Below, piece by piece: positions 17,735 through 19,045 of a stretch of DNA of 41,478 bases. Position 1 is the stretch's first letter. Each line of letters starts with the position of its first letter. The notes under the pieces are model-generated. The model did not search any database. It had not been told where the DNA came from and was given only the letters and a program-made list of their open reading frames with translations. The translations under genes were made by a program, and so were the position numbers. Source of the stretch: an uncultured Candidatus Saccharibacteria bacterium (lineage in GTDB: Bacteria > Patescibacteriota > Minisyncoccia > Phycocordibacterales > JACOZG01); assembly GCA_964362425.1 (NCBI GenBank), contig CAYIEL010000001.1:1-41478 (forward strand). The letters run 5' to 3'.

Positions 17735-17809
17735 GGTGCGGTGGCGAAGTGGTAACGCAGCGGTCTGCAAAACCGCAATACGCGGGTTCGATTCCCGCCC
17801 GCACCTCCA
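17735..17809 (+). tRNA. tRNA-Cys (anticodon GCA) with encoded CCA
   Basis: Acceptor ggtgcgg/ccgcacc, discriminator U, anticodon stem gcggt/accgc with loop ctGCAaa. Confidence 0.9.
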
Positions 17810-17810
17810 A

Positions 17811-17892
17811 GCCCGAGTGGCGGAATTGGTATACGCGCATGACTTAAAATCATGTCTCGCAAGGGATGTGGGTTCGACTCCCACCTCGGGCA
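17811..17892 (+). tRNA. tRNA-Leu (anticodon TAA)
   Basis: Acceptor gcccgag/ctcgggc, anticodon stem catga/tcatg with loop ctTAAaa, long variable arm. Confidence 0.9.
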
Positions 17893-18249: not shown

Positions 18250-18325
18250 TCCGCCCAGAGGGATTTGCATCCCCGACCGTCTGCTTAAGAGTCCGCCAGC
18301 CGGCGGATCTACTAACTGAGCTATT
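18250..18325 (-). pseudogene. degenerate tRNA-Lys-like sequence (tRNA ghost)
   Basis: Shares an identical 18-mer (cgaccgtctgcttaagag, 18274-18291 vs 18371-18388) and a 10-mer D-arm block with the adjacent tRNA-Lys. The anticodon-stem 5' half and the T-arm are replaced and no acceptor stem can be drawn. Confidence 0.5.
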
Positions 18326-18346: not shown

Positions 18347-18419
18347 TCCGCCCGGCAGGGATCGAACCTGCGACCGTCTGCTTAAGAGGCAGCTGCTCTA
18401 CCAACTGAGCTACGGGCGG
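18347..18419 (-). tRNA. tRNA-Lys (anticodon CTT)
   Basis: The reverse complement folds: acceptor ccgcccg/cgggcgg, D-arm gctcagttggtagagc, anticodon loop ctCTTaa, T-arm gcagg-ttcgatc-cctgc. Confidence 0.85.
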
Positions 18420-18595
18420 GACCAACTAAAACAATAAATGAAAAAAAGGTTATTGTCTATTGCAAACTTGATATACCACAGTTTTCACGACCGTGATTTT
18501 TATAGTATGGGTGTAAAATTGAAACGGTCGTAAACATTTTACACCTAAGACAAAAAGTGGATGATAAAAAATTTCATGTTAAGATAGGAAGCTAG

Positions 18596-18669
18596 GCCGG
18601 AGTGGCGAAATTGGCACCATGCACTACGTTGAGTGCATGGCCGTGCACCTCGCATGGTGCACGGGACGC
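18596..18669 (+). pseudogene. truncated 5' copy of tRNA-Leu(UAG) (26 nt) interrupted by two related 9-bp hairpins
   Basis: 18596-18616 is identical to 18941-18961 (gccggagtggcgaaattggca) and gacgc recurs at 18665-18669. Between them lie the hairpins ccatgcact/agtgcatgg and ccgtgcacc/ggtgcacgg. Confidence 0.7.
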
Positions 18670-18680
18670 ATAAATTAAAT

Positions 18681-18932
18681 ATGTACTACATTTATATTCT
18701 CAGGTTAAACAACAATCAATTGTACACTGGTATAACCGACAACTTGAGGCGTCGCTTTAATGAACACAAAAATGGTGGGGTCATATCAACAAGCCATAAG
18801 CGACCAGTAAAATTGATATTTTATGAGACCTTCTTGCTGAAAAGTGATGCGACACGACGGGAAAAATACTTGAAAACAAGTAAAGGTAAAAGTACACTTA
18901 GGTTAATGTTGCGAGATTTCCTGGGCACCTAA
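18681..18932 (+). CDS. GIY-YIG nuclease superfamily protein (small, stand-alone)
   Basis: MYYIYILRLNNNQLYTGITDNLRRRFNEHKNG matches the GIY..YIG..R..H/E motif order. Start moved to the ATG at 18681. Confidence 0.8.
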   Translation: MYYIYILRLNNNQLYTGITDNLRRRFNEHKNGGVISTSHKRPVKLIFYETFLLKSDATRREKYLKTSKGKSTLRLMLRDFLGT

Positions 18933-18940
18933 AATATATT

Positions 18941-19024
18941 GCCGGAGTGGCGAAATTGGCAGACGCGTCAGCTTTAGGAGCTGATGGGAGCAATCCCTTG
19001 GAGGTTCGAGTCCTCTCTCCGGCA
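18941..19024 (+). tRNA. tRNA-Leu (anticodon TAG)
   Basis: Acceptor gccggag/ctccggc, anticodon stem tcagc/gctga with loop ttTAGga, long variable arm, T-arm ggagg-ttcgagt-cctc. Confidence 0.9.
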
Positions 19025-19045
19025 TCACTTGCATTTTTTTAGGGT

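Follow-up and report, generated by a model that had tools for sequence, protein, structure and literature searches.

Architecture of the tRNA-Leu(UAG) locus

The present study examines a small nuclease cassette lodged in a tRNA gene of an uncultured Candidatus Saccharibacteria bacterium. The window, i.e. the whole stretch of DNA that was analyzed, is 41,478 nucleotides (nt) of contig CAYIEL010000001.1 (assembly GCA_964362425.1), from a genome of 678 kb in 62 contigs that is called G000 here. It contains an array in which ARAGORN places tRNA-Cys at 17735, tRNA-Leu(UAA) at 17811, tRNA-Lys(CUU) at 18347-18419 on the minus strand, and tRNA-Leu(UAG) at 18940-19026. Immediately ahead of the last of these lie a truncated copy of its own 5′ end, two hairpins, and a gene for an 83-residue GIY-YIG nuclease. 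We consider it probable that this arrangement belongs to a family of small cassettes, themselves probably selfish, that combine hairpins with a minimal GIY-YIG gene and live in the genes of tRNAs and other stable RNAs. The features of the locus, all on the plus strand, are as follows.

18577-18585, plus: extended -10 element TGtTAAGAT, the presumed promoter of tRNA-Leu(UAG) judging from its consensus and conservation, 10 nt upstream of the stub
18596-18616, plus: dead 5′ stub of tRNA-Leu(UAG), tRNA positions 1-21 (acceptor 5′ strand, D-stem 5′ strand, D-loop), an exact repeat of 18941-18961
18617-18640, plus: hairpin 1, CCATGCACT-acgttg-AGTGCATGG, in the D-loop between tRNA positions 21 and 22
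18641-18664, plus: hairpin 2, CCGTGCACC-tcgcat-GGTGCACGG, from the fold
18665-18669, plus: gacgc, tRNA positions 22-26 (D-stem 3′ strand), directly after the hairpins and kept in the related genome G028
18670-18680, plus: AT-rich leader ahead of the start codon, diverged and with an indel in G028
18681-18932, plus: gene for the 83-residue single-domain GIY-YIG nuclease (UPF0213/Slx1-like; Pfam match), ATG at 18681 and TAA at 18930-18932
18933-18940, plus: 8-nt spacer between stop codon and tRNA, from the sequence
18941-19024, plus: intact tRNA-Leu(UAG), Rfam 55.4 bits (ARAGORN 18940-19026)

An initial annotation of this DNA had reported the exact 21-nt repeat of the tRNA 5′ end, the return of gacgc at 18665-18669, the two 9-bp hairpins (here with 6-nt loops) in the 48 nt between, the nuclease open reading frame (ORF) stopping 8 nt before the tRNA, and a cassette of about 345 bp bracketed by the direct repeat, and all of these were recovered. 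The repeated 21-mer, gccggagtggcgaaattggca, has a period of exactly 345 nt, and at up to 3 mismatches its other matches are two other tRNA-Leu genes only, with a chance expectation of 0.01. The stub is not a piece of another RNA gene, an outcome that the annotation had entertained, as neither Rfam nor ARAGORN calls a tRNA or any other RNA family over 18596-18680. The intact tRNA-Leu(UAG) at 18941-19024 is the single copy in the assembly according to the whole-genome tRNA list, and the plus strand has no terminator-like site between stub and tRNA. The nuclease ORF is the sole credible gene between the repeats, and no tyrosine or serine recombinase is encoded there. A group I intron in tRNA-Leu was also considered and rejected, with no intron family matching in Rfam at E values up to 1 and a contiguous intact tRNA present.

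Conservation of the nuclease and the hairpins

The predicted protein matches the Pfam GIY-YIG family PF01541 at 62.6 bits (cut-off 22.6; E 4.3e-17), with the domain covering residues 1-70 of 83. Across 113 homologues Y5, Y15, G17, R25, and K65 are invariant, and H29 and E49 are at least 90% conserved. The AF2 structure model has a confidence (pLDDT) of 96.5, with strands at 2-8, 14-19, and 44-51 and helices at 22-30 and 54-64, so that the catalytic residues of the family (two tyrosines, arginine, histidine, and glutamate) and, in the model, its beta-beta-alpha-beta-alpha core are both present. The best Foldseek matches were to UPF0213 structures (1ZG2, 1YWL) and Slx1 structures (6SEH, 7CQ3), and I-TevI came ninth with little structural similarity (E 0.73). 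In sequence, the PDB proteins closest to the nuclease are EF2693 and BH0048, both UPF0213. The TIGR01453 score of 18.5 bits is below its cut-off of 56, and PADLOC and PHROGs searches with this protein returned no match.

The most informative comparison is with G028, a relative recorded in the database as Candidatus Vogelbacteria and belonging to a separate genus from G000 (translation initiation factor IF-2 52-54% identical). Between the two nuclease genes there are 10, 6, and 37 differences at codon positions 1, 2, and 3, respectively, with a nonsynonymous rate (dN) of 0.083, a proportion of synonymous differences (pS) of 0.71, and dN/dS of about 0.04, and the protein is therefore functional. 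The ORF region has a GC content of about 37-41%, compared with 48-54% in the flanks, and the ORF is A-rich and low in GC while four-fold sites of the host are C-rich. Whether the cassette had recently passed horizontally between these two genomes was also addressed by comparing rates, and recent transfer was not shown: synonymous sites are nearly saturated, and four-fold-site identity was 14/24 (0.58) for the nuclease and 53/128 (0.41) for infB, a difference not significant on 24 sites. The contrast that remains is in protein identity, 82% for the nuclease as opposed to 52% for IF-2.

The hairpins were similarly constrained. The fold of 18590-18685 has a free energy of -42.3 kcal/mol (z = -4.4), and none of 200 shuffled sequences was as stable. 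In G028 hairpin 1 carries two compensatory pair changes and hairpin 2 has an identical stem with only its loop changed, and a compensatory C-G to T-A variant of hairpin 2 occurs at locus L113. In an alignment of ten homologous hairpins, 98.9% of cells were paired, double changes were found at 3 of the 9 pairs, positions CCnTGnAC...GTnCAnGG were invariant or nearly so, and none of 500 shuffles reached the observed covariation score. These patterns, together with the way in which the hairpins track the nuclease lineage, support the suggestion of the initial annotation that the hairpins have a function; they are functional parts of the cassette and not scars, and by sequence comparison both nuclease and hairpins are under purifying selection. 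A function in the sense strand, as RNA, was considered through a possible excess of G.T over A.C oppositions in the stems and was not supported, the counts being 8 and 10 with no asymmetry. Rfam holds no family for the stub, for the hairpins, or for the GC-rich spacers between tRNA and ORF at other loci.

The search for a ccRTGCACy-type hairpin elsewhere in the genome, for which the initial annotation had called, returned hairpins 1 and 2 only at this cassette, with one occurrence each in 678 kb. Across genomes the CCATGYAC...GTRCATGG form of the hairpin accompanies only nucleases that share 48% identity or more with the one in the window, always just 5′ of the ORF, and in four contexts: position 21 of tRNA-Leu(UAG), the anticodon loop of tRNA-Leu(CAA), the 3′ CCA end of tRNA-Ser, and position 12 of tRNA-Glu. 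This one lineage has therefore moved from site to site repeatedly and retained its hairpin, as a mobile element that depends on a cognate cis element would be expected to do.

State of the site in related genomes

Three genomes of the same genus as G000 (G003, G004, and G005) are cassette-free at tRNA-Leu(UAG): their tRNA-Lys is followed by a spacer of about 180 nt and then by an uninterrupted tRNA-Leu(UAG), and in alignment with these empty alleles the window has a clean 345-nt insert. Cassette-free alleles, a comparison that the initial annotation had recommended, were found in several genomes of genus g6 as well, and they support its proposal that the cassette inserted into the tRNA gene and that an intact copy was restored. 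A conserved extended -10-like element, TGnTAARAT, closes the spacer of the empty alleles about 10 nt ahead of the tRNA; it reads TGaTAAAAT in G005, TGaTAAGAT in G003, and TGtTAAGAT in G004, and these align with 18577-18585 of the window. Since this conserved element lies 10 nt before the stub, the stub occupies the ancestral start of the tRNA. The position of the element directly 5′ of the stub also favors the view, again raised in the initial annotation, that the nuclease uses the tRNA promoter, if the element indeed acts as one.

Among relatives the one tRNA-Leu(UAG) site is found in four states, i.e. empty, filled, filled by a distant cassette, and decayed. It is filled in G000 and G028, holds a remnant in G001, and is empty in G003, G004, G005, G022, G029, and G030. 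In G028 the stub, two hairpins, gacgc, leader, and nuclease gene follow tRNA-Lys in the same order and at the same tRNA position as in the window, with 81% DNA identity over the cassette; only the first 10 nt of the second repeat copy are on the contig, and a search for the remainder of that tRNA-Leu(UAG), which might have shown a chimera, found that it is not assembled. In its D-arm the G028 stub is spelled as is typical of the genus of G028 (gtggtgaaatggca), and the five bases after its hairpins are gacgc, as in the window, and not the gacac of the tRNA typical of the G028 genus; this one-base difference is a hint that gacgc may belong to the cassette. G001, which is sister to G000 in the IF-2 tree, has kept nothing of this nuclease gene but a decayed 3′ remnant ahead of its tRNA-Leu. 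In G002 a 42%-identical nuclease occupies the same D-loop position with a different 40-nt hairpin and an analogous cagacgc, and the acceptor strand of the stub (gccttgg) mismatches the intact tRNA of that genome (gccgaag...cttcggc). The D-arm type GCGAAATTGGCAGACGC was tried as a marker of cassette-borne tRNA-Leu and discarded because the same type is common in cassette-free relatives.

Distribution of related cassettes

All three small GIY-YIG genes of G000 adjoin tRNA-Leu, tRNA-Lys, or transfer-messenger RNA (tmRNA). Other GIY-YIG genes beside tRNA 5′ fragments, which had been a further suggestion of the initial annotation, were found on a second contig of this genome and in many other genomes. 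On that contig (C3:29041-29430, minus strand; locus L003), 20 nt of tRNA-Lys(UUU) are followed by the palindrome gatccgccggccggcggac, 15 nt of anticodon arm, an 88-residue GIY-YIG gene, and an intact tRNA-Lys(UUU), which the last codons and stop of the ORF overlap by our ORF call; this nuclease is 23% identical to the one in the window. The third gene (C30:3441-4280; L002) lies about 150 nt downstream of tmRNA, behind a spacer with the motif ttcgactcg...ctcgctca...ccccgagc..gtcgaaggg. The interval from a tRNA or tmRNA to a GIY-YIG gene contains that motif again in Omnitrophota, Planctomycetota, and other loci of the candidate phyla radiation (L071, L073, L077, L080, L081, L093), and it matched no Rfam family.

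The association was quantified over 160 loci with related small GIY-YIG genes from public genomes and metagenomes, counting a tRNA or tmRNA as adjacent if it was at most 100 nt downstream or at most 400 nt upstream of the nuclease gene. By this measure 87 of the 160 loci had an adjacent tRNA or tmRNA, and 104 of 106 such genes were on the strand of the nuclease. A downstream tRNA usually begins 1-10 nt after the nuclease stop. At loci with a downstream tRNA, a piece of it (a stretch of at least 9 nt) was repeated upstream of the ORF in 25/38, compared with 4/38 in a control using the reversed tRNA; the mirror layout, in which an intact tRNA, hairpins, and ORF are followed by a 3′ tRNA piece, was found at 11/46 loci, with 1/46 in the control. 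The breaks and hairpins of the stubs fall in the loops of the tRNA (D-loop 11-21, anticodon loop 35-38, and T-loop), and hairpins with a stem of at least 8 bp were upstream of 59% of ORFs compared with 25% of control flanks. The same order of stub, hairpin, ORF, and tRNA occurs at many tRNAs and in many phyla. Among 61 relatives the number of copies per genome ranged from 0 to 7, with none in 9 and with 7 and 4, respectively, in G003 and G005; sister species differ in copy number, the occupied tRNAs vary from genome to genome, and some copies contain stop codons.

Related small GIY-YIG genes also occurred on the same strand inside a 16S rRNA gene (L122, 513-2228) and about 85 nt upstream of signal recognition particle (SRP) RNA (L111 and L112, 1336-1434), and the association therefore extends past tRNAs to other stable-RNA genes. 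Separately, at L027, L028, L065, and L071 the structured spacer between RNA gene and nuclease is tandemly multiplied, with 2-3 copies of units of 27-115 nt. Within the window there is in addition a ghost of tRNA-Lys(CUU) at 18250-18322 on the minus strand, 24 nt 3′ of the intact tRNA-Lys(CUU), in which the palindrome gatccgccggctggcggac (18291-18309) replaces the D-stem 3′ and anticodon-stem 5′ strands. The palindrome is at the same tRNA position in the C3 tRNA-Lys(UUU) stub and in a tRNA-Lys(CUU) cassette of G025 (L015), and the ghost looks like a relic of a second cassette type from which the nuclease gene has gone.

Evidence on what travels with the cassette comes from G003, which has a cassette in tRNA-Cys of the same tRNA array (L007, 300-720 and 742-825) where its sister G005 (IF-2 90% identical) has none. 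With its hairpins removed, the G003 stub matches the tRNA-Cys of G005 at 32 of 33 positions and the intact tRNA-Cys of G003 itself at 27 of 33. The intact tRNA-Cys of G003 agrees with that of G005 at 59 of 71 positions, whereas the tRNA-Cys genes of G005 and the more distant G000 agree at 67 of 71. At this locus the stub is thus native and the working tRNA foreign, so that the cassette brought a whole replacement tRNA. The tRNA-Leu(UAA) beside it is inverted in G003 relative to G000, G004, G005, and G028, which suggests a rearrangement accompanying insertion. At the tRNA-Leu locus of the window stub and tRNA are identical over 21 nt, and native and foreign origins are not distinguishable there. 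If the remnant in G001 marks one shared ancient insertion, this identity is itself notable, and either gene conversion, selection, or a second and more recent arrival would be needed to account for it.

Origin and maintenance of the cassette

The case for horizontal movement rests on a patchy distribution, a nuclease far better conserved than IF-2, an atypical ORF composition, and the occurrence of the same lineage at different sites. If the cassette is a selfish resident of stable-RNA genes, the old tRNA promoter would transcribe stub, hairpins, nuclease mRNA, and tRNA as one RNA, from which RNase P would then free the tRNA; because the nuclease gene would be co-transcribed with an essential tRNA, the cell could not silence it without losing the tRNA. 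The cassette may travel with part or all of the replacement tRNA, as the tRNA-Cys case of G003 and the fungal elements discussed below suggest. It could enter through recombination between homologous tRNA sequences, whether a break is followed by gene conversion or a small intermediate, circular or tandem, integrates by a single crossover. A cut from the cassette's own nuclease might stimulate entry, and the 21-nt direct repeat would permit precise loss. By analogy with the Ssn enzymes described below, the hairpins may be the single-stranded DNA recognition element of the nuclease. That mobility is driven by the nuclease is a minority possibility in our estimation. We regard as rather unlikely, though worth stating, the fuller version in which the nuclease and its cognate twin hairpins would be a mobile element of a new kind, sufficient in themselves. 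The nuclease would recognize the hairpins or the folded loops of single-stranded tRNA-gene DNA, nick there, and drive insertion with a replacement tRNA into tRNA, tmRNA, SRP RNA, and rRNA genes across many bacterial phyla, and essential stable-RNA genes would thereby serve it both as landing site and as expression platform.

Several observations weigh against a selfish and mobile cassette. The uniqueness of the hairpins in G000 gives no sign of current spread. The modeled fold is nearest to UPF0213 and to the structure-specific nuclease Slx1 and not to I-TevI, which speaks against simple homing, as does the lack of a DNA-binding domain in the 83-residue protein; its nuclease activity and target are predictions from sequence and model. 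The intact tRNA keeps the exact D-loop sequence of the stub, so that a nuclease simply recognizing that sequence would cut the working gene of the host. A scan of viral contigs, with a phage vector in mind, found no relatives of the cassette. The copies in G000 and G028 are old and the age of their split is uncertain, and they could instead reflect ancient vertical descent with repeated precise loss.

An alternative explanation could be a domesticated nuclease of benefit to the host, for example one resolving R-loops or branched DNA at heavily transcribed stable-RNA genes and inherited vertically, with the tRNA-like leader and hairpins acting as a regulatory or mRNA-stabilizing 5′ untranslated region. 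Very strong purifying selection (dN/dS 0.04) with synonymous sites near saturation between two genera, conservation of the noncoding hairpins, the Slx1/UPF0213-like and not I-TevI-like fold, and the reach of the association to tmRNA, SRP RNA, and 16S genes are all consistent with such a role, but it would not account for the patchiness even between sister species (7 copies in G003, 4 in G005, and none in 9 of 61 relatives), the occupation of different tRNAs in different genomes, the decayed copies, the arrival of the G003 cassette with a foreign tRNA allele, or an ORF composition atypical for the genome, and we consider it improbable. Even less credible, to the point of being very nearly dismissed, is a local tandem duplication of the tRNA in which the upstream copy decayed and an unrelated small ORF arrived by chance, with no tRNA-directed element at all. 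Duplicates and ghosts of tRNAs do occur in this array, such as the tRNA-Lys ghost, but many different tRNAs in many phyla show this order of parts, the strand is shared in 104 of 106 cases, the cassette is common to two genera at an identical tRNA position, the stub stops exactly at the hairpins, and no full tandem tRNA-Leu copies without the ORF were seen in close relatives.

It is also possible, although we would not expect it, that the hairpins are independent palindromes resembling miniature inverted-repeat transposable elements (MITEs), moved in trans and accumulating in dispensable stubs because only in such stubs would insertions into the loops of folded single-stranded tRNA-gene DNA be tolerated; the hairpins would then be unneeded for movement of the nuclease gene, which is partly compatible with a selfish tRNA-resident cassette. 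This would fit their location at tRNA loops (D-loop 11-21, anticodon loop 35-38, T-loop), the presence of several hairpins in some stubs, the tandem multiplication of units in tRNA-to-ORF spacers, the lack of an excess of G.T over A.C in the stems (8 and 10, as for palindromes at the DNA level), and the palindrome gatccgccRgcYggcggac, which is found also in the tRNA-Lys ghost of the window with no nuclease gene beside it. Palindromes moving on their own would not be expected to be confined in G000 to this cassette, as hairpins 1 and 2 are, nor to co-vary in type with the nuclease lineage and lie always just 5′ of the ORF, nor to keep the stem of hairpin 2 invariant while synonymous sites became nearly saturated. 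A probably selfish family of hairpin and nuclease cassettes resident in stable-RNA genes thus remains the explanation that we favor.

Relation to known systems

In its logic the cassette is closest to the mobile ORFs (mORFs) of fungal mitochondria, reported from atp6 of Allomyces macrogynus and from atp6, atp9, cox2, and nad3 of Glomus, in which a free-standing endonuclease ORF, of the GIY-YIG type in Glomus atp9, sits in a host gene; the mORF brings in a foreign version of part of that gene, and the native version of this part is displaced and persists as a duplicate (PMC3630166). In both systems a nuclease ORF is flanked by a duplicated part of the host gene (here the 21+5-nt stub) and one functional copy is kept, and the native stub and foreign intact tRNA at the tRNA-Cys cassette of G003 follow exactly the mORF pattern. 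The cassette differs in that its host gene is a tRNA on a bacterial chromosome, in that the 5′ part is displaced (although the mirror 3′ layout exists), and in having a bare 83-residue domain as its nuclease together with conserved twin hairpins.

The pairing of enzyme and hairpin, on the other hand, is closest to the Ssn nucleases and their NTS repeats. Ssn proteins, such as SsnA of Neisseria meningitidis (CDD cd10448), are single-domain GIY-YIG enzymes whose genes are flanked by cognate hairpin repeats (NTS/SRM); they bind the cognate hairpin and cut single-stranded DNA a few nucleotides 5′ of it, and this cleavage has been demonstrated (PMC11893778). The likeness is one of architecture, the nearest solved relatives of our protein being UPF0213 proteins, and consists of a single-domain protein of about 90-100 residues (83 here), of a gene with hairpin-forming sequence beside it, and of a hairpin sequence that co-varies with the enzyme in both. 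In contrast, SRM repeats are dispersed in hundreds of copies, whereas the hairpins of the window are unique and lie on the 5′ side only; the SRM consensus HGTCWYN(0-2)YYVSBRHN(0-5)WNVSBRGN(0-2)RNCYNB had 0 matches in the 678-kb genome compared with 1-4 in shuffled sequence; and tRNA is not mentioned in the Ssn paper (PMC11893778).

Integrase-borne islands and prophages in tRNA genes are likewise flanked by a directly repeated segment of the tRNA and regenerate an intact tRNA, but the cassette has no integrase, carries the nuclease as its sole gene, measures 345 nt and not kilobases, duplicates the 5′ portion, and inserts at tRNA loops. With Seg and I-TevI enzymes it shares presence/absence polymorphism at a fixed site and differs in a protein without a DNA-binding domain. 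Proteins of the SegB type are considerably larger and contain a further part that binds DNA. SegB of phage T4 is a free-standing GIY-YIG homing endonuclease in a tRNA gene cluster (PMC2330249). It resembles the cassette in being a GIY-YIG gene among tRNA genes that is inherited preferentially with the flanking tRNA region and is polymorphic between relatives, and differs in lying between tRNA genes and not inside one, without a known tRNA stub or hairpin architecture. SegB is also phage-borne, which the viral-contig scan, having found no viral relatives, did not parallel for the cassette.

We found no description of tRNA-resident mini GIY-YIG cassettes in the literature, and the family, though widespread, is as far as found unpublished. 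If the family is as it appears, its members, at about 350 bp, would rank among the smallest known mobile elements that carry a gene, persisting while wedged in essential tRNA genes for which they supply the working copy. Many of the ghosts and repeated fragments of tRNAs that reduced genomes contain would then be explained, and so would tRNA alleles that are replaced patchily from species to species and contigs that break at tRNA genes when metagenomes are assembled. A large natural library of Ssn-like single-stranded DNA nucleases, specific for sequence or structure, could also reside in the nuclease-hairpin pairs.

A minor observation concerns tRNA-Leu(UAG) in genome G017, where two tRNA-Leu(UAG)-like genes in divergent orientation lie at the start of a contig (L021, 132-212 and 347-433). 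One of the two differs at its 3′ end and is a possible chimera.

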